From positions 109,586 to 164,882 of the IMG/VR virus record IMGVR_UViG_3300037424_001778: DNA of 55,297 nt, one strand, 5' to 3'. The notes under the pieces were generated by a model, which worked only from the letters and a program-made list of their open reading frames with translations, did no database searches and was not told the origin of the DNA. A program made the position numbers and the translations under genes. Position 1 is the first letter of the stretch; each line of letters opens with the position of its first letter. Origin of the DNA: a virus. Of this stretch, positions 10,938 to 27,972 are shown piece by piece.

Positions 10938-13013
10938 ATGGCCCAAAAATCCGGCATCACCCTAGAGCTAACACCGTTCAAGCAAGACTTGCTGCAGAAC
11001 CTTGTTGGCGAGGGTTTGTCCAAAGCTCAAGTTTCCAAGAATGGCCGCAAGATGTCGCTGGAATTTGCCGACCCGGTCGGAGGGACTCTAACCAAAGAGC
11101 AAATTGCTCGGCACGACGAAGCCATGGCTGCCCATAGCCCGTTGGTCAAATCCGTACTCAACGTACTGAATGGTCCGGGCGATTCCATCGAGCGCCTAGC
11201 CTTCGAAGTACAGCCCTCGATGCAGAACCAGTTCCAGGGCTTGTGGAAGATGAAGATGCGTCTGTTGCCAGACGACATTCTCAAACGCATAGCCATCCAG
11301 GACTCACTAATCGCCGCAATCGCCAACACCCGGTCGAACCAAATAGCCGCCTTCGGCCGCCCGCAACCAGACCGATTCAGCACAGGCTTCCGAATCGAAC
11401 CTGAACCACACTACACAGAAAAGCTCGACGCCAAGAAGAAGGAAGAAATTCAAAAACGCGTGTCGGAAGTCGAAGCTCTTTTCATGACGTGTGGGGAAAC
11501 TACCGGCTGGGAAGACCAAGAGGCACTAAACCTTTCCCAATACCTTTTCCAATCTGCACGCAATGCCGTCATCGTTGGACGCATCGCGACTGAAATGATT
11601 TGGATTGACAAAGACGGCAAGCGAGTATTCCATGCGTTCCGGCCTATCGATGCCGGCACAATCTACAAGGCCGCACCCCAAAAGGAAACAGCCGAAGCTG
11701 TGCGCCGCAACGCACTGCACATGATTGAGTCCTTGAAGAACAAAGACCTGGAGCCTGAACGCTTCCAGAATGAATCCTATTCGTGGGTGCAAGTGGTAGA
11801 TGGTAGGCCCGTACAGGCTTTCGGGTCCGATGAATGTGTTTGTCACAACTTCTATCCGGTGCCTGATGTGGAGCTGGATGGGTACCCTGTTACGCCTATC
11901 GACACCATTATCGCCGACGTTACGATGCACATCAACATCGTAACCCACAACAAGCTCTATTTCGAGTCTGGCCGTGCTGCTCGAGGCATGATTGTCATTC
12001 AGTCAGAAGATGTCGATGAAAACGTAGTCGGGTTCGTTCGACAGCAATTCAACGCCAACATCAACTCCGTAGGCAAGTCTTGGCGAATGCCGATTTTCGG
12101 CATTGGGCCGAAGGACCAAATCAACTGGATGCCGATTGACAACTCGTCTCGTGACATGGAATTCCAGTATTTGTCTGACACGAACTCGCGGGTCATTTTG
12201 TCTGCGTTCCAGATGAGCCCAGAAGAGCTTCCTGGCTACGCCCACCTCAGCCGAGGCACAAACAGCCAGGCGTTGAGCGAGTCGAACAGCGAATACAAGC
12301 TAGAGGCACATCGCGATGTTGGCATCCGCCCTCTTCTAGCTCAATTCCAGAACTTCCTCAATGCGAAAATTCTCCCCCTTCTTGCTCCGGACCTGGCCGA
12401 TTTCTGTTCAATCAAATTTGTGGGTCTAGACGCAGATACTGCCGAAAAGGAGGCAACGCGCTTGATGCAGGACATGGGCGTACACATGTGTACCGACCAA
12501 GTCCTGGAGCAAGTCGAAAAGAAACCTATCGGCAAGCGCTTCGGCGGTCAATTTCTACTCAATCCTCAATGGCAAGCAGTTGTCGATAAGTATTTTCTTG
12601 TCGGCGACGTCATGGAGCACTTCTTCGGTATCGAGGGAGCATCAAAGGACCCCCGTTTCCAATTCGTCAATAACCCCAATTGGATGCAATGGCAGCAAAT
12701 GCAAATGGAAGTACAGCAAGCGCAAGCTCAGGCTCAACAACCCCAACAAGACCCGAACGCTCAACAAGACCCAAACGCACAGCAAGACCCGAACGCCCAA
12801 CAGCCGACCGACCTCACTAGGTCTATCGACCAACTATCTAGCCTTCTCACGAAGTCGGAAACGCACCTCCCTTGGTCCAAGCGCGCCCTCATCACCCACC
12901 AGCGCAAGCTAGTAGAAAAGGTGATAAATTCATTCGAGGAAGACGCCGAAGAGGCGTGCAAGGAAATAGTCAAAATCGCCCAAGAGCACTTGCCTTCGTC
13001 ATTGAAGAAGTGA
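10938..13013 (+). CDS. Portal protein
   Basis: RPIDAGTI, HNKLYFESGRAARG, SRDMEFQ, AFQMSPEEL, GIRPLL; position in the head module. Confidence 0.85.
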   Translation: MAQKSGITLELTPFKQDLLQNLVGEGLSKAQVSKNGRKMSLEFADPVGGTLTKEQIARHDEAMAAHSPLVKSVLNVLNGPGDSIERLAFEVQPSMQNQFQGLWKMKMRLLPDDILKRIAIQDSLIAAIANTRSNQIAAFGRPQPDRFSTGFRIEPEPHYTEKLDAKKKEEIQKRVSEVEALFMTCGETTGWEDQEALNLSQYLFQSARNAVIVGRIATEMIWIDKDGKRVFHAFRPIDAGTIYKAAPQKETAEAVRRNALHMIESLKNKDLEPERFQNESYSWVQVVDGRPVQAFGSDECVCHNFYPVPDVELDGYPVTPIDTIIADVTMHINIVTHNKLYFESGRAARGMIVIQSEDVDENVVGFVRQQFNANINSVGKSWRMPIFGIGPKDQINWMPIDNSSRDMEFQYLSDTNSRVILSAFQMSPEELPGYAHLSRGTNSQALSESNSEYKLEAHRDVGIRPLLAQFQNFLNAKILPLLAPDLADFCSIKFVGLDADTAEKEATRLMQDMGVHMCTDQVLEQVEKKPIGKRFGGQFLLNPQWQAVVDKYFLVGDVMEHFFGIEGASKDPRFQFVNNPNWMQWQQMQMEVQQAQAQAQQPQQDPNAQQDPNAQQDPNAQQPTDLTRSIDQLSSLLTKSETHLPWSKRALITHQRKLVEKVINSFEEDAEEACKEIVKIAQEHLPSSLKK
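12744..12803 (+). repeat. Three 18-bp tandem units encoding QQDPNA in the portal C-terminus
   Basis: caagacccgaacgctcaa-type units. Confidence 0.8.
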
Positions 13014-19573: not shown

Positions 19574-22500
19574 TCTCTGGGATTTTCGCCTCTGAGGCGT
19601 TGGACAGCTCTGGCGAGACATTGCGCGTAAAAGGCGCCGATATCTCTAGCCTGAACGATGGTACTGGGTATTGTAACTACGAGCACAATAGTTCTGACAA
19701 AAACGGCACCGAACTCGTCGGTCGAGTCTTGAGCGCCAAGAAGATTTACTCCTCGGACGACTGTTCCAATGCAGTTGAAAAGCATTTTTGGGAAGATGTC
19801 CGCCTGCCCTTCATCTTCGGGACCGTTCGGTTGTTCACGGAAGGCGACCACGACGGGGCGCTAGCCCTAGCTGCAATCATTCGGGATTGCGTACTCCACG
19901 GAGAGACAATGTTCCTTGGGTTCTCCATTGAAGGGAGCACCCTGAAAAAAGATGGCAACGAATTACTTCGTACGGTATGTCGTGGCGTCGCCTTGACACA
20001 AAAAAGTTGTAATAAAACAGCGAAATTACTGATGATTTCTGACCCAACAGGCAAAGCCAAGAGCGAATTCGGTGGGCCAGACATCGCTTCTTTGGTTGAC
20101 AACAAGAAGTCTGAAGGCTCCATCGACCCCATGCACCGGCGCCTTGGTGGTCACGAGGCATCGTACGGCGCCGAAATTCTCAAAGCCATGACGGCCGGCA
20201 ATATGAACGCGGCTCCAAGCACGCTGACGGGCGGCGCGGCTCTTCAGCGCACAGACCTCCACCAAAAAGCAATGGGTGCCTACAAGGACTGGAACGCCTC
20301 CAAGCCCAAGAAGACCAAGCCAGAAGAAATCGAAGTAGTCAAGTCAGAATTCAAATCCTTCCTCAAGAATCAGCTCCCAGAGGTCAGCGACGAATTCCTA
20401 GACCATTTTTCAGACCTAGTGTCTCGCCACAGCTTCCGAGTAGCCAAGGCAGAGCAAGTCATCGCCACGCTAGCCAAGGCTGGGAAGAAGCCAGCGAAGC
20501 CCAAGGCTGCCCCCGCCGAAGCCGCTCCAGACTTGACGATTCAGGGCAAGCCAGTACCCCGCCCCCCAGAAGGCACCAGGTCTGTCTCGTTTGACCCACA
20601 AAAGGGAACCCTCACGACACGTCAGGGAGTGTTCCAAGCATCGACGCCCAGCGCTCCGCACCCGCACCTTCTAGAGCACACAGGCAAAGCACCCCAAGAA
20701 ATCGCCCAGCACTTCGGCGCCGAAATGGCCGCGCAGCGCGTACACCACCAACGCGCCATGAAAAACTGGTTCAACGTCAATGACCAATTCACCAAAGGCA
20801 CCTTGAGTCCTGGCGTAGTAGCGCATGCGGTAGCGTTTGGGCTTATGTCCCCCGGAACGCCCGTGCCGCAGCAGGAGCATCTTTTCGGCCACTTCGTAGA
20901 CGCACTCCATAGCCAAGGAGTTCAGGTGCCTGGCTTGGATACCTGGAATGCCACTTACAAAGACTTGATGGCTCGCAATAGAACTGGTCTGCCCCAGCAT
21001 AGCCAAGAACACTTCAAGAACCTAGAGTCGGAACTAAAAAACAAAGCTGGCCAGTTCATCGGCTTCAACAAGCCAGACAAATTCTCAGAGTACTTTGGAG
21101 GCTACCTCGCAGACCACCACAACCAAGTCATACAGGCCATCAAAGACGCCAAAGGCGACGCTAGTGTCGTAGCCAGACGTCTGACTGAAGTCAGAGGTAT
21201 GGGTCCGAAGCTGGCGCGCTATATCACATCTATGATGGGTGGCGGGTCATTGACAGTACCAGACACCCACTTTATCCGACACTACTTTGGTGGACGCCCA
21301 GATGCACCTGGACAGCGCCCGGGAACAAGTCCAGACTCAGCAGCCATCGAGCACCTCAAAAATTCTATTCTGTCCAGCGCTGGCAGCCACGATGTTTTGG
21401 AAGGCGTCGACAAGCACTACTTCGAAAACCACGATGCGGTTAAGTCCGTCCTCAACGACCCAACCATCGGTCCCTACTTCAAGGGACGCGAGCGTCAGGC
21501 TATCTTCCCAGCGTTTTGGCATCACTGGATTTCAATCCCAGGTCACGAAGCCCGCATCGGCACGCCAAACAAGTACGCGTCTAACGAGGGCATGGACCAC
21601 GCCCCGTTCTGGGACGCAGTCAGACCTCTTCTGAACAAATCCGAAGACGCAGAGTACGACCCAGACATGCCATTCCGCACGGCCATGCAGCATCATCGCT
21701 GGGTGGAGAACTACGGCCCAGTCCACGCTCTCGGATTGTACTACCGCTACCTCGTGCCCCAACTCCAAGAGAACGACGCCAAGCGAGACACGTTCGTCAT
21801 GCGCAAGTTCGACGAACTCCAGGTCGAGATGTTTGCGGCGCTGCGAAAAGCGAAAGAGACGCAGACGGAAGCTCCCGAATATGTATATCACATCACTCAC
21901 CACAATAGGCTCACTGGTATAGCTTCCCGAGGACTCGTCCCCAACTCGCCCAGAAGCATCGGGGCCCCCGGCTACGACTTCCACGCCAAAGGACGCACTT
22001 TTCTTACCTCTCCCGAGGGGGTAAATTTTTGGCACGAGCGCAGCGAGGCTTTTGCCGAACACAACCATGACCACCCGGCTGACGACGGAGCCGTTCCTGT
22101 CGTCCTGCGAACACCCAAGCCGGCAGACCTCAAGGCCGACGAGTTAGGCACAAAAGACGCTTACGCTCCTGCGTATGTTACCTCTACCTCAATCCATCCT
22201 AAAAACCTAGAGGTGTTCAACGGCAAGACATGGACCCCAATAGCGCACCATCGCACTATCGAACCGAGAGATGCTTTTGATTTTGAGCAGGATCCAGAAG
22301 GAGGGTCGGAACTCCAGTACTTTAAGCCCACGAGCCCCTTCCTTCCCAGCCTAGAAAAGGCCGAACTCCGCAAGGCACAAGACAAAATTACGTCCACAGG
22401 CAAGAAGCTCAAGCCTCCACCTATCCAAGATACAGACGTAGTGGATTGGCAAGGAGGTAAGGTCCGTGCAGGCAAGGGTATATTGAACGACCACCAACAT

Positions 22501-23454
22501 ATGTATCTATTGGGTGGAGACGCCAAGTATTTCATGGGAGTTCCCAAAGAAAAATTCCCCCACTTCACGCCAGAAGATGTAGTCAAAATGCCTCGTGGCA
22601 ATACAAACTTGATGGTTCACGTCGCTCCGGAACGACTGGACGCACCTTCCACCATCACAGCCAAGGAGCACGGGGTGGGTGAATACCTCCAACATCCAGA
22701 AAGCCAAGCCCTGGCTGAGGGTTTCGATTTCGAAGCCAACACCTCGAGCGCCACCAAGGGTTCACGCAAAGGGTTCTCCTTTTGGGGCCAGCACCCCAAT
22801 GGCCAGAAGGTCTACGTAAAGGGTGAGCCAGGTTGGGTACGACATCCTTGGAATTTACCCGAAGCCAGACAAGAGGGTGTGTATTCCAATCTGGCTCGCA
22901 GCTTCTTTGGCATGGGCCAATATGTACCTCCAGTAGCTGTAGTCAGGCACCCCAAAACAGGCATCGAACACGCAATCGTCGCTCACGCTCCAGGGGAGGA
23001 ACGCAGCTACGCCAATCCAGAGCACCAAAAAGTCATGAAATCGTTGGGCGACTCGGGAGAGCTGGACAAGGCTGCGTTTATGAACCTGGTGATGGGGAAT
23101 ACAGACCGCAACCCAGAAAACTACCTGGTAGACACTAAAGCCAATACAATGCATCTCATAGACCACAACCTGATTTTGAGGGAAGACCCCCAACTCGGAC
23201 CTGCATATATGGGATACGGGGCCGTAGACAAGAAAGCCCCAGTCCACCCAGAAGCCATCAAGTGGGCCCAGCAACTCAACCCAGACGAGCTAGAAGCCCA
23301 ACTGCGACGCCACGAAATTCCCGAACCCTCGATTCACGGTGCTACCGAAAGGCTTCGCTCCTTGCAAAAATTGTTGACCAAGAATCCTACCGTCGCTCGG
23401 TCCCTAGCCCTCACCTTACCTCAGCAGTCCGAAAACGAACGCCATCGTTGGTAA
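19567..23454 (+). CDS. Prohead protease fused to HhH-GPD glycosylase-like, ART/Tpt1-like and PI3/4K-HipA-like kinase domains
   Basis: Protease: SEALDSSGE..NYEH..GFSIEG. HhH: LTEVRGMGPKLA..PDTHFIRH. ART-like: YHITH..IASRGLVP. Kinase: VYVK..E..NTDRNPENYL..LIDH. Confidence 0.75.
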   Translation: MLISGIFASEALDSSGETLRVKGADISSLNDGTGYCNYEHNSSDKNGTELVGRVLSAKKIYSSDDCSNAVEKHFWEDVRLPFIFGTVRLFTEGDHDGALALAAIIRDCVLHGETMFLGFSIEGSTLKKDGNELLRTVCRGVALTQKSCNKTAKLLMISDPTGKAKSEFGGPDIASLVDNKKSEGSIDPMHRRLGGHEASYGAEILKAMTAGNMNAAPSTLTGGAALQRTDLHQKAMGAYKDWNASKPKKTKPEEIEVVKSEFKSFLKNQLPEVSDEFLDHFSDLVSRHSFRVAKAEQVIATLAKAGKKPAKPKAAPAEAAPDLTIQGKPVPRPPEGTRSVSFDPQKGTLTTRQGVFQASTPSAPHPHLLEHTGKAPQEIAQHFGAEMAAQRVHHQRAMKNWFNVNDQFTKGTLSPGVVAHAVAFGLMSPGTPVPQQEHLFGHFVDALHSQGVQVPGLDTWNATYKDLMARNRTGLPQHSQEHFKNLESELKNKAGQFIGFNKPDKFSEYFGGYLADHHNQVIQAIKDAKGDASVVARRLTEVRGMGPKLARYITSMMGGGSLTVPDTHFIRHYFGGRPDAPGQRPGTSPDSAAIEHLKNSILSSAGSHDVLEGVDKHYFENHDAVKSVLNDPTIGPYFKGRERQAIFPAFWHHWISIPGHEARIGTPNKYASNEGMDHAPFWDAVRPLLNKSEDAEYDPDMPFRTAMQHHRWVENYGPVHALGLYYRYLVPQLQENDAKRDTFVMRKFDELQVEMFAALRKAKETQTEAPEYVYHITHHNRLTGIASRGLVPNSPRSIGAPGYDFHAKGRTFLTSPEGVNFWHERSEAFAEHNHDHPADDGAVPVVLRTPKPADLKADELGTKDAYAPAYVTSTSIHPKNLEVFNGKTWTPIAHHRTIEPRDAFDFEQDPEGGSELQYFKPTSPFLPSLEKAELRKAQDKITSTGKKLKPPPIQDTDVVDWQGGKVRAGKGILNDHQHMYLLGGDAKYFMGVPKEKFPHFTPEDVVKMPRGNTNLMVHVAPERLDAPSTITAKEHGVGEYLQHPESQALAEGFDFEANTSSATKGSRKGFSFWGQHPNGQKVYVKGEPGWVRHPWNLPEARQEGVYSNLARSFFGMGQYVPPVAVVRHPKTGIEHAIVAHAPGEERSYANPEHQKVMKSLGDSGELDKAAFMNLVMGNTDRNPENYLVDTKANTMHLIDHNLILREDPQLGPAYMGYGAVDKKAPVHPEAIKWAQQLNPDELEAQLRRHEIPEPSIHGATERLRSLQKLLTKNPTVARSLALTLPQQSENERHRW

Positions 23455-23522: not shown

Positions 23523-24683
23523 ATGGATTACAACGACAAACTACATTACGTCTTCGGTGTCCATCCTCGAGACGGCCAACCGGACCCCCAGCACTCATTG
23601 CTGGGCAAATTCTGGCTCGATGGCAGCAATTTCAAGGTACTAGAAGACCACGGTCTTGTCCCTGGGCAGGACCTTGAAGACCTCCCTCCCGAGCAAGCAG
23701 CCAGAGCCATTCGACGCATGGCATCCTCTCAGCGACGCAAGGTCGTGTCGGCCAAGCAACTAGTCGAAGGCGAGCATCCAGAACTCCTCCCTTCTTCCAA
23801 TCGGAACAGGGAGCTACCGGGCAATCTGGCCGAAGCGATGCAAGACCAAATCGCCGCCCAACCCAAAGGCCCTAGGGTGTCGACCTTCGAATACCACCGA
23901 GAAGGAATGCCACAGCCCCAAATCCTGAAGCTAGCCGGCCAAAAGGCCTTTTTGGACGACCAACCCCTGAAGCCCGAAGAAGTCGCAAAGGTGATGGAAC
24001 ACTTGGGCAGCGGCAAAGCTAAGCTGCGGCATTCTTTGGCGAAGAGTGAATTCGAACCTGACTTCGAGCCATTGGCCAAGAAAATCGAAGAAGGGCTGTC
24101 TGGGGCCCTCGGGCACATGCGGGACGCTGTCAAGGCGGGCCATGTCCATCCCGACGCTTTGAAGACCCTAACGAGGCATCTGTTCAGTGACAGTATGATT
24201 CCTGTAATGGGTAACAAAGCGGCCTATAAGGATTTCCTTAGTAGGCCTAGGGAAGGCGTACACGTACATCTGGACGGGAACGACTTCGGCTCGATAAATA
24301 AAATGCACGACCACGAGACTGGCGACAAGGCAATAATTGCCATGGGCAAAGGTATCAGGTCTGCTATGGATGAATCTGTCGGTCGTGCTCACGGAAAGCT
24401 CTTCCGTGTAGGTGGAGATGAGTTCGTGGCTCACGTTCCCTCACACGAACACGCCGCCAGGTTCGCTCGCGCTGTGCGGGCGAAGCTCGATGCTATTCCA
24501 GCCGTAAAAGGGACCCACCGCTTGAGTATGTCTATGGGCTGGGGCCCCACCTCCGAGCACGCTGAAGCGGGCCTGCAAGACGCCAAAGCAGCAAAGAAAG
24601 CCGCTCAGTACCCACTAGGCCAAGCTAAGACCCACGCAGCTTCTAGGATGCCTGGTCAAGAGGGTGTTATTCCGGTGGAGTGA
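23523..24683 (+). CDS. GGDEF (diguanylate cyclase-like) domain protein
   Basis: HLDGNDFGSINKMHDHETGDKAI...LFRVGGDEF..LSMSMG. Confidence 0.8.
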   Translation: MDYNDKLHYVFGVHPRDGQPDPQHSLLGKFWLDGSNFKVLEDHGLVPGQDLEDLPPEQAARAIRRMASSQRRKVVSAKQLVEGEHPELLPSSNRNRELPGNLAEAMQDQIAAQPKGPRVSTFEYHREGMPQPQILKLAGQKAFLDDQPLKPEEVAKVMEHLGSGKAKLRHSLAKSEFEPDFEPLAKKIEEGLSGALGHMRDAVKAGHVHPDALKTLTRHLFSDSMIPVMGNKAAYKDFLSRPREGVHVHLDGNDFGSINKMHDHETGDKAIIAMGKGIRSAMDESVGRAHGKLFRVGGDEFVAHVPSHEHAARFARAVRAKLDAIPAVKGTHRLSMSMGWGPTSEHAEAGLQDAKAAKKAAQYPLGQAKTHAASRMPGQEGVIPVE

Positions 24684-24882
24684 CCTTGCGGCAGCTCTTG
24701 CACCGGCTCTGGTGTGAGTCGAACTCCAAATCCTTGAGTAGAACCTGATGGCACCCTGGGCACTGTTTGTAACCCTCGGTGCCATTGCATTTACGACACT
24801 TGTTGTTGGAATCTAGGACGCCCCGGCGCGAGCACTGCGGGCATGTCTTCTTGTGTCTGCGCATACGCCTATAATAGCACAC
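24667..24882 (-). CDS. Small zinc-finger protein (start uncertain)
   Basis: Four CxxC pairs. Confidence 0.5.
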   Translation of the reverse strand: MCYYRRMRRHKKTCPQCSRRGVLDSNNKCRKCNGTEGYKQCPGCHQVLLKDLEFDSHQSRCKSCRKVTPPE

Positions 24883-25123
24883 GTCCGAAAACAGTCATCC
24901 GGAGGCCGATCTCCCCAACGCCCCGAATTGCCAGTTTCGCCAATGACATCAAATGGTTGAGGCGATCTCCTGCGCGAGCACTGCGGGCATGTCTTCTTGT
25001 GTCTGCGCATACGCCTATAATAGCACACGTCCGAAAACAGTCATCCGGAGGCCGATCTCCCCAACGCCCCGAATTGCCAGTTTCGCCAATGACATCAAAT
25101 GGTTGAGGCGATCTCCTGCGCGA
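24826..25123. repeat. Perfect 146-bp tandem duplication bounded by GCGCGA microhomology
   Basis: Copies start at 24826 and 24972; GCGCGA recurs at 25118. Confidence 0.95.
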
Positions 25124-25205: not shown

Positions 25206-25652
25206 ATGTCAGCCAAAGCTATCGCACAGTGCAATGAGATCCGAACCGACCTAGCTCGTCGATTCACCACCGTTGGCCCCACCCAATTCGACGTCAATGG
25301 CCAGCCATACTTCGTAATCGGTGCCGCCACCGCAGGCAGCCAGTCAGCCATCGTCAAGGTGCAGGACTTCAGCATCCCCGGCGCCACCAACGCAATCAAC
25401 CTCGCCCAGGCAGTTTACGGCAATCCCGCCATCGCCCAGGTTCTTCTCGAGACTTCAACCCTCGCTGGCGTCCCCCTTCTCACCGCAGTCAACCAGCTCG
25501 CTCTTCTCAACACGGTAGCTTTCCGTGGTCTTCGAGTCGAACTGTACATGACGGCGAACACCGTTCCCGTGACCATCGGCGCCATCGTTGCCGGCAACCT
25601 CGTTGCCACTTGGGACCCCGACCAGAAGTACAAGATGCTTCAGTCCATGTAA
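25206..25652 (+). CDS. Putative virion structural/decoration protein
   Basis: AAGGAGA RBS, TAATCT upstream, strongly C-ending codons, directly before scaffold and MCP. Confidence 0.6.
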   Translation: MSAKAIAQCNEIRTDLARRFTTVGPTQFDVNGQPYFVIGAATAGSQSAIVKVQDFSIPGATNAINLAQAVYGNPAIAQVLLETSTLAGVPLLTAVNQLALLNTVAFRGLRVELYMTANTVPVTIGAIVAGNLVATWDPDQKYKMLQSM

Positions 25653-25681
25653 GCCACAGAATATCCAAAGGAGATTCTATC

Positions 25682-26554
25682 ATGGCAAAAATCACCGACA
25701 AAGCAGTATTGGCAACCATCGCCGCGCTCGAAGCAGAGCTAAACGATGCAGCCATGCTTGCTAAGGCTGAGCCCGAAGGGCCCCCGGCCGAATCATCTGA
25801 CGACAGCGCTTCACCTTCGGCTGACGACGCTTCTCCGTCAAGCGCCCCAGCTCCTGCTGAAGACGCCAGTGCCCCAGCACCGGAAGCACCTAGTGCTCCT
25901 CCGGAAGCAGCCCCAGCCAGCCCCGAAGCGCCAGCAGGCGTCCAGGACCCGGCAGCTCAGGCTCAAGGTCCGCTAGACCCAGCAGCTCTTCAGGCAGAGT
26001 ATTCACAGCTCCCCCCTGACCAGCTAGACATGCACATCCAGGCAGCAATGGCAGCCAAAGAAGCCCTTGCAGGTGCAGCCAACGCAGGCGCAGCAAGCCC
26101 TGCAGCAGCCCCCCCGATGGCTCCTCCCGCCGCTTCTCCTGCACCTATGGCACCTCCGGTACCTCCGGTAGCCAAAGGCGAAATCAAGACAGGCAAAGAG
26201 CAAGGTGGAATGGTTAAGTCTGAAGCGGCTGCACTCCGTGAAGAACTAGCCGCACTCAAGAAGTCACTCACCGAGAAGGACGAAGACGTCCAACTGCTTA
26301 CCAAGGCAGTCAAGATGGTCATCGAGAAGCCCGAGCGCAAAGCAGTCACCAGCATGGCTCAGCTTCAATACCTAGGCAAGTCTGAAGTTCAAGCAGCCCC
26401 CAAGGCCGTTTTCACCAAGGCCGAAGCCGAAGCAAAACTCAGCGCAGTTCTTCCCAGTCTTACGAAGTCTGAACGAGACCTCGTAGTGCAGTACTCACTC
26501 GGGCGCGTCAAAATCGACGCTCTCTCGTCCATCCTCGAAAAAGCATCAAAGTAA
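25682..26554 (+). CDS. Capsid scaffolding protein
   Basis: A/P/E-rich with a coiled coil, precedes the MCP, many xxK|S/A motifs, AAGGAG RBS. Confidence 0.7.
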   Translation: MAKITDKAVLATIAALEAELNDAAMLAKAEPEGPPAESSDDSASPSADDASPSSAPAPAEDASAPAPEAPSAPPEAAPASPEAPAGVQDPAAQAQGPLDPAALQAEYSQLPPDQLDMHIQAAMAAKEALAGAANAGAASPAAAPPMAPPAASPAPMAPPVPPVAKGEIKTGKEQGGMVKSEAAALREELAALKKSLTEKDEDVQLLTKAVKMVIEKPERKAVTSMAQLQYLGKSEVQAAPKAVFTKAEAEAKLSAVLPSLTKSERDLVVQYSLGRVKIDALSSILEKASK

Positions 26555-26580: not shown

Positions 26581-27972
26581 ATGGCATCAGAACAAGTTCT
26601 TGGACTCATGAAAGCGATGGAGGCCGGCAATCAGAATGCGGCTCCCTCAACCCTAGTACAGGGTGCAGCTCTACAAATCGAAAACCTCTCGAAGGTGATG
26701 GAAGTTGTCACCATCGACGAGAAGTCAATCAAGCTCCAGAAGGGAATGGAAGTCGAAAGCTGCAAGTCGACTCTCGCTCAATTCGACCGCTACCTCAGCT
26801 ATGGCATCCTTGGCGCTTCGGCGACCATCGAAGGCGCAGTTGGGCAAGAGGAAGACTCACTCGTTGCACGTATCGTTGTGCCGATGGCTTATTACAGCCA
26901 CATGCGCAAGGTTACCGACGCAGCGAACATGGTTACCACTGTTGACGGCGTAAAGGCCGAAGACCGTGCCGCTCGCGATGCAGCCATCAAGCTCGCTTGT
27001 GACATCGAATTCGACCTCTTCCGTGGTAAGTCTGACTTCAGCAACGTCGGCGTATTCGACGGCAACATGGCAGTCATCCCCTCGTTGCCCAACATCCTTG
27101 GCCTCGACAGCCAAATCCGTATGTCTGATGTTGAGCCCAATGCTCAGGACCAGATGTTCGCAGAGTACGGGACGAACGAGAGCGTAGTCGTCAACGTCGG
27201 TGGAACTCTTACCCAAGACTCCATCGAAGACGCCCACGTCAAGTCAGTCATTCACCACGGTGAGGCTGAAGAGCTTTACATCGACCCCCGCGTTGCCAGC
27301 GCCTACAACAAGATTGCTTTCGGTAAGGAGCGTATCATCGTTGCAGGTTCAGCTCAAGACGCAACCGGCGCCGACCTCAAGCGTCAGTGGGTTTCGGGTG
27401 GTACGGTTTCACTCCAGACCTCAATCTTCCTCTCCGGCAAGACTGGCCCAGCAAAGGCTCGCCCCAACGGCCCAGCAGCTCCTACCGGCGTAGCCGCAAA
27501 CGCAGGTGGAACGACTTCACTCGCTGCAGGTGTTTACACGTACTTCGTGACCAGCGTAAACGAGCTTGGTGAGTCGCCTATCTCGGCAGCCATCGTCAGC
27601 GCGGCCATCGCCCTCGGCGACCAAATCACGGTGACCATCACTCCTCCTGGCGCTGGCGTAGTTCGCTACTTCAACGTCTATCGAACCAACGCCAACGCCC
27701 CCGCGGGAAGCGCCAAGTTCGTGGGTCGTGTTGCCAATTCGGGCGGCGCTACCACGGTCTTCACAGACCTCGGTAACCGTCGACCTGGTTTCGTGACGGG
27801 ATTCCTCCTCCAGAAGGACTCGATGAAAATCTTCGAGCTTTCGGCATACAGCCGCAAGAAGATGGGTGTTGTAGACCTTACAACCACCGAGGCGCACTTC
27901 CGATTCCTCACCCTTGGTTGTACAAAGCCCAGGTTCAATACATTACTTGATAACCTAGTGGGTAGTTTCTAA
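26581..27972 (+). CDS. Major capsid protein (Herelleviridae-like, with an FN3-like insertion)
   Basis: MK|AMEAG..GAALQIENL N-terminus resembles A511/Twort Cps; IEFDLFRG; YTYFVTSVNELGES..YFNVYR..FTD insertion. Confidence 0.9.
   Translation: MASEQVLGLMKAMEAGNQNAAPSTLVQGAALQIENLSKVMEVVTIDEKSIKLQKGMEVESCKSTLAQFDRYLSYGILGASATIEGAVGQEEDSLVARIVVPMAYYSHMRKVTDAANMVTTVDGVKAEDRAARDAAIKLACDIEFDLFRGKSDFSNVGVFDGNMAVIPSLPNILGLDSQIRMSDVEPNAQDQMFAEYGTNESVVVNVGGTLTQDSIEDAHVKSVIHHGEAEELYIDPRVASAYNKIAFGKERIIVAGSAQDATGADLKRQWVSGGTVSLQTSIFLSGKTGPAKARPNGPAAPTGVAANAGGTTSLAAGVYTYFVTSVNELGESPISAAIVSAAIALGDQITVTITPPGAGVVRYFNVYRTNANAPAGSAKFVGRVANSGGATTVFTDLGNRRPGFVTGFLLQKDSMKIFELSAYSRKKMGVVDLTTTEAHFRFLTLGCTKPRFNTLLDNLVGSF

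Follow-up and report, generated by a model that had tools for sequence, protein, structure and literature searches.

Introduction

In phage T4 the enzyme Alt and the internal proteins are packaged via the prohead core, trimmed by the protease gp21 and ejected together with the DNA, and the proteases of the T4 and phiKZ type cleave after the Glu of a three-residue motif (PMC9026906). GGDEF domains have been predicted in capsid-packaged polyvalent proteins of phages and prophages, with a very large multi-enzyme protein from an Acetonema prophage as the example (Iyer et al. 2017, PMC5512222); we found no mention in that paper of a link to a prohead protease or of a cleavage motif. Here we analyse a GGDEF gene that stands as a separate gene in the head module of an Mx1-like myophage. 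It lies in a stretch of 55,297 nucleotides, the window, which makes up the final 55 kb of a virus record of 164,882 bp that is rated complete (IMG/VR, IMGVR_UViG_3300037424_001778). The gene codes for two small N-terminal units (N1 and N2), a linker and a C-terminal GGDEF domain, and is placed between the gene of a prohead-protease polyprotein upstream and the genes of a scaffold-like protein and the major capsid protein downstream. Judged by its predicted fold and its residues, it most likely encodes a GGDEF-fold nucleotide cyclase of the diguanylate cyclase type.

Among cultured phages the closest relative is Myxococcus phage Mx1 (OR576727.2), which shares the order of the head module. Its capsid protein is 56% identical to that of the window, and its GGDEF protein shows 33% identity across 85% of the length. 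The Mx1 orthologues are deposited as a 'nucleotide cyclase' (WNM70324.1), an upstream hypothetical protein (WNM70323.1) and a 'putative prohead protease' (WNM70322.1). The genome announcement is silent on the genes of the GGDEF module, which carry database names only (PMC10720576). Mx1 also has a RNGGDEF signature, the relocated lysine described below (DMNDFGQINK) and an L-x-K-x-D-P motif in the linker. One difference is that in Mx1 the module is split into proteins of 150 aa (N1-N2) and 243 aa (linker plus GGDEF), the break falling inside the linker, while the window has one protein of 386 aa.

With Alt and the internal proteins IPI-III of T4 the locus has in common a protease of the gp21 fold, late head-module genes and short motifs at the cargo borders, which here are candidate cleavage sites. 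Alt is an enzyme that is injected with the DNA and modifies the host, and its counterpart would be a predicted second-messenger synthase. T4 cargo carries a propeptide of about 10 residues that is cut after the Glu of L/I-x-E, whereas here the candidate motif reads L-x-K-[S/A]-E and the protease itself, fused to the cargo or associated with it, would bring the cargo in. The window protein resembles canonical diguanylate cyclases (PleD, WspR, SiaD, DgcB, SadC) in its fold, its GG[D/E]EF signature, the Asp for the metal, the Asn/Asp pair for guanine and, by motif, a putative Lys for phosphate. In contrast to them, it has no RxxD inhibitory site (I-site), carries Gly at the position of PleD Lys332 with a Lys four residues on, and probably has Lys in place of Arg446. 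Its N-terminal partner is a two-part module instead of a REC, PAS, GAF or membrane sensor, and the gene is viral, sits in a head operon and is only about 20% identical to cellular GGDEF domains. GGDEF-fold proteins of Bacillus phage G (gp350), Bordetella phage CN1 and Bacillus phage SP-15 were found with Foldseek in BFVD (E=7e-8 to 5e-6). They match the catalytic domain alone, and we found no functional study of them in the literature. GGDEF domains in capsid-delivered proteins were already predicted in 2017, while we found no published description of a prohead protease-GGDEF link, of the linker motif or of an assay of a packaged diguanylate cyclase.

Results

The Pfam GGDEF profile (PF00990) matches residues 245-361 of the window protein (E=2.8e-9, 37.4 bits, cut-off 23.8), and an exhaustive search gave 169 representatives matching the protein at E<=1e-30, far beyond chance. 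An AlphaFold2 model, built from a 34-sequence alignment on the cluster representative P0001, which is one residue off the window protein (A47 versus V47), reached a predicted local distance difference test score (pLDDT) of 86.4. Disorder is predicted for residues 92-102, 111-115 and 173-188 only, with pLDDT below 50 in the last of these. Compared with VIA-align, residues 190-386 score Z 16-18.5 against the solved diguanylate cyclases SiaD, WspR, Dcsbis, DgcB, SadC and PleD. The best match is SiaD (Z 18.5, root-mean-square deviation 2.7 across 156 residues) and about 30 more cyclases lie above Z 15. Lower scores were obtained for class III adenylyl/guanylyl cyclases (Z 12-13) and for the minimal CRISPR polymerase mCpol (12.2), and the top Foldseek matches are all diguanylate cyclases. 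A first-pass annotation of this DNA had proposed a phage-encoded GGDEF protein in the head operon; the open reading frame (ORF) is real, the profile match and the synteny with protease, scaffold and capsid protein support the proposal, and the fold on which it depended is present.

Active-site residues were mapped by a HMMER alignment to the GGDEF domain of GcbC (5euh), with the key residues of PleD taken from the list that PMC6629876 quotes, and were counted over 251 family members. The substrate- and metal-binding segment (24273-24326) reads DGNDFGSINKMHDHETGD in translation, and its D251, N259 and D268 align with the D, N and D of 5euh. D251 corresponds to the first metal Asp of PleD (Asp327; D in 236/251), and N259 and D268 to the guanine-binding pair Asn335 (N in 248/251) and Asp344 (D in 167 and N in 77). 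The signature is intact in the window protein and exact in 188 of the 251 members; G298 and D299, the latter at the position of PleD Glu370 and Asp throughout these members, are each kept in 249 and E300 in 227. The phosphate-binding Lys442 of PleD would be K355 (K in 240/251), placed by motif and with no structural superposition (A-E-x-x-L-Q-x-A-K355-x-x-K358-K359 on A-D-x-A-L-Y-x-A-K-x-x-G-R); on this placement K359 would stand for Arg446. D251, N259, D268, GGDEF and K355 are thus all found in the window protein and are conserved in 67-99% of the relatives. The first-pass annotation had listed the RVGGDEF signature, the metal Asp and the guanine-binding Asn and Asp as retained, and all of them are; it was silent on Gly256, which takes the position of PleD Lys332 (DxFK).

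Gly256 is followed one helical turn later by K260, both on a predicted helix (255-262). The two positions covary: G256/K260 occurs in 121 members, K256/D260 in 82 and two basic residues in a single one, so that exactly one Lys or Arg is present at 256/260 in 232/251, with at least 15 switches on the tree. Because this covariation is sharp and has been switched so often, the lysine appears to have been relocated from 256 to 260 and to be still under selection. Variation of another kind is seen at D268. Of the 77 members with Asn, most (55) carry Phe at the position of His264 as well. The tree requires at least 22 switches at D268, and part of the family may have changed its nucleotide specificity. 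The window protein has kept His264.

In product-inhibited diguanylate cyclases RxxD stands five residues upstream of the signature; here R288-A-H-G291 aligns exactly on the RPAD (RxxD) of 5euh. Across the family the Asp position of the I-site is G in 139 members, A in 54 and never D, in agreement with the reading of RAHG as a lost RxxD in the first-pass annotation. Loss of RxxD removes product inhibition alone, and diguanylate cyclase activity requires dimerisation. The term 'unregulated', which had also been applied to the enzyme, goes too far, since only product feedback is missing, and the N1-N2 module (present in 217/251), dimerisation and proteolysis are possible controls.

At least 179 full-length homologues of the GGDEF protein occur in metagenomes, on contigs of up to 181 kb. 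Gene order is the same in 34/34 related viral contigs and in Mx1: portal, protease polyprotein, (kinase-like), (N1-N2), GGDEF, a 148-aa protein, scaffold and capsid protein. Many of the homologues form the C-terminal end of proteins of 650-1700 residues. In a census with hidden Markov models (HMMs) the free N1-N2-GGDEF form accounts for 181 of the 251 members. The gp21-like protease and GGDEF are joined in one polypeptide in 36 representatives, as protease-N1-N2-GGDEF (31), protease-N2-GGDEF (4) or protease-GGDEF (1). The remaining 34 are GGDEF-only (24), N2-GGDEF (9, mostly fragments or split genes) and a second GGDEF hit (1). The fused protein P0134 shares, in its residues 1-302, 39% identity with the protease of the window (E=1e-56), and P0204 carries both GGDEF and a kinase-like domain. 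On the tree of the catalytic domain the fused and free states require at least 12 changes, compared with a mean of 33.5 for shuffled labels. This argues that the protease-GGDEF link is old and has been remade repeatedly. If polyvalent proteins are taken as polypeptides with at least two unrelated effector domains, the window GGDEF ORF is not one of them, while relatives of the protease-mid-GGDEF type, and P0204 with its additional kinase, are. In P0211 (1672 aa), another protease-GGDEF fusion, a weak Pfam Intein_splicing match (residues 500-907, E=0.0013) lies between the protease and the cargo domains.

The polyprotein encoded upstream of the GGDEF gene consists of a gp21-like protease (1-160), a peptide that resembles the capsid N-arm, middle domains and a C-terminal PI3/PI4-kinase-like domain. 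The protease part matches phrog_1028 weakly (E=3.7e-7), and His40 and Ser120 are invariant over 27 protease sequences. Its AlphaFold2 model (pLDDT 84.7) matches T4 gp21 with Z 9.9 (root-mean-square deviation 2.4, 118 residues) and the proteases of varicella-zoster virus (9.4), human cytomegalovirus (7.1) and Kaposi's sarcoma-associated herpesvirus (5.6), whereas unrelated folds score Z 5.0 or below. A sequence-only PDB search with this domain gave nothing meaningful, and the assignment comes from the fold search and the PHROG match. On this evidence the N-terminal 160 residues are a capsid-maturation protease of the predicted T4 gp21/herpesvirus-assemblin fold. The C-terminal domain was recognized by Pfam PI3_PI4_kinase (E=3.4e-6, residues 1130-1226, window 22954-23244), and with it the candidate payloads would include a second enzyme. 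A peptide of about 28 residues in the polyprotein, ILKAMTAGNMNAAPSTLTGGAALQ (20164-20259), closely matches the N-terminus of the capsid protein, LMKAMEAGNQNAAPSTLVQGAALQ (26581-26680), and tblastn with the protease segment cross-matches the capsid protein genes of several relatives at 62-68% identity. A docking or decoy function of the peptide is possible.

How far the GGDEF gene belongs to this head type was seen in a census of the wider clade anchored on the capsid protein, for which an alignment-based search (A3) was used instead of a single-sequence search, which gave 3 loci. GGDEF is present in 29/56 loci that have the protease family and at least 6 kb of room, and 27 lack it. The latter form a sister arrangement, in which the protease gene precedes those of scaffold and capsid protein and mostly runs on the other strand; with 299-874 aa (one 1220) these proteases are shorter, and they carry other C-terminal pieces (DUF6321, DUF5661 and unnamed extensions). 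As a sister subclade lacks it, GGDEF is, by this count, accessory cargo and not a core part of the head. The loci of that subclade (L054, L074-L130) have capsid proteins about 54% identical, and L104 is the sole exception that carries GGDEF. A capsid protein homologue elsewhere in the set (L021:11407-12804) has one in-frame stop; a sequencing error, an intron or recoding might explain it.

Residues 1-170 of the GGDEF protein fold in the model into two small strand-helix units, N1 and N2. This module of about 170 residues accompanies GGDEF in 217/251 members (181 free, 31 protease-N1-N2, 4 protease-N2 and the second GGDEF hit); the N1 HMM finds the 181 free and 31 protease-fused members, and the N2 HMM lies beside GGDEF in 226/251. 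No match was obtained in PHROGs, none that was usable in the ESM Atlas and none in the PDB with a 13-sequence profile (best E=0.61). Structure searches with the whole model were taken up by GGDEF matches and in effect covered the C-terminal domain only. An origin of N1 and N2 by internal duplication is unsupported (hhalign probability 3%). The idea that N1 is confined to free forms, as a stand-in for the tie to the protease, is ruled out by the fused architectures PROT-N1-N2-GGDEF (31), PROT-N2-GGDEF (4) and PROT-GGDEF (1).

A candidate cleavage motif emerged from the scaffolds. In those of 16 relatives KSE is the tripeptide most above composition (37 observed, 3.9 expected), a result obtained with no motif assumed, and the top gapped pair is L.K (108 versus 30). 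K[SA]E reaches 15.9 per 1000 aa in the window scaffold-like protein versus 0.9 genome-wide, and in the relatives 11.2 in scaffolds as against 1.1-1.3 in portal and capsid proteins. A related pattern marks the linker between N2 and GGDEF: [LIVMAF]-x-K-x-[E/D] is found there in 211/226 members (93%), usually two in tandem, at a density of 3.25 per 100 aa versus 0.08 in the GGDEF domain, a difference of about 40-fold. In the window protein LAKSE (172-176) and LAKKIE (184-189) both lie in the disordered linker between well-folded parts. Alignment A1 shows K187 as invariant, and across the family the second site has the consensus L-x-K-x-E-P. In most relatives the protease domain, too, is followed by a K-x-E element, and L9-x-K11-A12 is invariant at the N-terminus of the capsid protein.

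The exact bond is less clear. Cleavage after Glu in T4 and phiKZ favours a cut behind KSE, while three features speak for a cut after Lys: the hydrophobic-x-K spacing, the capsid protein site and the Pro that follows Glu at the second site of the linker. A cut between Lys and Ser is plausible from these sequences, with cleavage after Glu as the alternative. The domain border that the first-pass annotation had drawn between LAK and SE falls in a disordered linker, and a cut at this bond is plausible, not established. Outside the window, a 756-aa protein (G000:C1:28104-30374; L132:605-2875) contains seven K[SA]E (9.3 per 1000 aa versus 0.9 genome-wide), the second highest density in the genome after the scaffold. 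It has no Pfam or PHROG match and may be another substrate of the head protease.

The features of the locus are collected in Table 1. The ATG of the GGDEF ORF is preceded by AAGG, 8-11 bases upstream. Its frame differs from that of the upstream 1295-aa ORF and just three open codons precede the start, so that it is a separate gene. The scaffold-like gene directly precedes the capsid protein gene. Just downstream of the GGDEF gene there is a tandem duplication (24823-25114), with 146-nt copies at 24823-24968 and 24969-25114 that are 99-100% identical. It repeats the start of a minus-strand 71-aa Cys-rich ORF (24667-24882; several CxxC), for which no Pfam or PHROG match was found, together with a promoter-like site. 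The duplication may have arisen recently or may be an artefact of the assembly.

Table 1. Features of the GGDEF locus and the head module (window coordinates).
Feature	Position	Strand	Basis and remarks
GGDEF-module gene: N1-N2 module, linker, GGDEF domain	23523..24683	+	386 aa plus stop; ORF, Pfam, homologues, AlphaFold2
N1 subdomain, residues 1-91	23523..23795	+	AlphaFold2: three strands-helix-strand, pLDDT 84-94
N2 subdomain, residues 116-170	23868..24032	+	AlphaFold2: pLDDT 91-96; HMM N2
Candidate maturation-protease site 1, L172-A-K-S-E176	24036..24050	+	translation; disordered stretch
Candidate maturation-protease site 2, L184-A-K-K187-I-E189	24072..24089	+	alignment A1
Two lead-in helices and predicted GGDEF catalytic domain, residues 190-386	24090..24680	+	VIA-align, Foldseek
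Substrate/metal segment, D251-G-N-D-F-G256-S-I-N259-K260...G-D268	24273..24326	+	alignment to 5euh; family census
Degenerate I-site, R288-A-H-G291 replacing RxxD	24384..24395	+	aligned to RPAD of 5euh
Signature, R295-V-G-G-D-E-F301	24405..24425	+	translation
Prohead-protease polyprotein, 1295 aa	19567..23454	+	phrog_1028, AlphaFold2, fold match, Pfam
Scaffold-like protein, Ala/Pro-rich, true start uncertain, five K[SA]E sites	25610..26554	+	site density, position
Major capsid protein	26581..27972	+	phrog_752, E=1.8e-39; 56% identical to Mx1 major capsid protein
Portal protein	10938..13013	+	tblastn on L001: 52% identical to annotated Mx1 portal protein

Discussion

The GGDEF protein is probably loaded into the phage head. 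Independent comparative lines support this association: the clade-wide synteny, the repeated in-frame fusion to the protease and the conserved candidate protease motif in the linker. We propose a scheme of five steps, in which the cyclase is the payload of the Mx1-like head-assembly system, and we would give the full scheme about an even chance. The cyclase would be made late, alongside the head proteins, and would enter the prohead core with the gp21-like protease polyprotein and the scaffold. There the protease would cut sites of the [L/V/A/M]-x-K-[S/A]-E type, including LAKSE and/or LAKKIE in the linker, and a catalytic fragment of about 22 kDa would be freed from the N1-N2 module. This cleavage may itself be a switch. 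The last two steps, and any effect on a host, are speculative and drawn by analogy. The fragment might be kept in the filled head and leave with the DNA, like Alt and the internal proteins of T4; in the next host it might dimerise and convert two guanosine triphosphates (GTP) into cyclic diguanosine monophosphate (c-di-GMP), and, as the RxxD site is absent, this would proceed without product feedback.

Several observations weigh against this scheme. At the active site the lysine of the canonical DxFK motif is Gly256, for which K260 is a plausible substitute; the position of PleD Arg446 would be taken by K358/K359 and is mostly Lys in the family. E300 is absent in about 10% of the relatives and 25% depart from the exact GGDEF, so that some lineages may have given up catalysis. 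On the side of packaging, the window GGDEF protein has no covalent tie to the protease and no evident short targeting propeptide. K[SA]E is only weakly enriched in the cargo polyproteins of relatives (1.6 per 1000 aa versus 1.1-1.3 in portal and capsid proteins), and most fused forms keep N1-N2, which indicates that this module is not simply a loading tag. We found no virion proteomics for Mx1 or its relatives in the literature. Finally, a search of the whole phage genome gave no PilZ, EAL or HD-GYP (HD_5) match and one GGDEF, which fits an action on the host but holds no positive clue to the target.

A gene in the late head operon, whose product in the window is free-standing with its own ribosome-binding site and start codon, could also encode an enzyme that works late in the producing cell. 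Its change of c-di-GMP would then alter surface structures, block superinfection or time lysis, and it would not be carried onward. The protease fusions would serve co-expression or the later destruction of the enzyme, and cleavage of the linker could equally switch it off. We regard this as unlikely, as repeated in-frame fusion behind a protease internal to the prohead would put the domain inside the shell, and as such an enzyme has no evident need for protease-type sites in 93% of the linkers.

The variation within the family raises the question of the product. With Asn in place of the guanine-specifying Asp in 77/251 members, at least 22 switches on the tree and a canonical Lys that has moved, the protein could be a synthase of another cyclic or linear di- or oligonucleotide or a consumer of GTP, packaged or not. 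It would be directed against cyclic oligonucleotide-based antiphage signalling systems (CBASS) or against type III systems of clustered regularly interspaced short palindromic repeats (CRISPR). An island of M. xanthus with CBASS and a type III-B system stops Mx4 and not Mx1, for which the authors suggest countermeasures of Mx1 (PMC11506125), and this insensitivity would suit such a role. The same can be said of the decoy nucleotides made by palm-domain relatives such as mCpol (PMC12657218), given its Z of 12.2 to the window model. However, the window protein keeps the guanine pair Asn259/Asp268 together with His264, its fold resembles diguanylate cyclases much more than it does mCpol or the class III cyclases, and nothing that we found ties the gene to the resistance of Mx1, so that we consider another product or purpose quite unlikely.

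Very unlikely, in our view, is a non-catalytic head-core protein with a structural, DNA-binding or nucleotide-binding GGDEF fold and catalytic motifs that are inherited and not used: the constant place in the head module, the loss of Glu300 and of the exact signature in some relatives and the well-known degenerate GGDEF binding modules (FimX and LapD are among the structural matches) would fit it, but metal- and base-binding residues kept in 94-99% and a Lys maintained by relocation point to selection on an active site, and half of the loci that share this type of capsid and protease do without the gene, which is thus not a needed part of the head.

To our knowledge, second-messenger synthases are not among the proteins known inside phage heads. 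If the payload scheme is true, a diguanylate cyclase borne by the virion would rewrite motility, polysaccharide and developmental signalling of the host at DNA entry. A wider reading, which we hold as a tentative and somewhat doubtful extension, takes the protease as a general vehicle for loading enzymes, with a feedback-free cyclase that is cut free in the head, injected with the DNA and acts on the host at time zero. The blow to the c-di-GMP network of the host, or to its cyclic-nucleotide immunity, would then precede the expression of any phage gene, and release from N1-N2 could be the switch that activates the cyclase. A protease fusion with interchangeable payloads (cyclase, kinase-like and other domains) would, if true, be a packaging system found in nature that phage engineering could find of interest. 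As Mx1 is cultivable and carries an orthologue, the steps are directly testable. In a social gliding host such as Myxococcus, a cyclase brought by the virion could affect the spread of the phage through the swarm, superinfection or defence.

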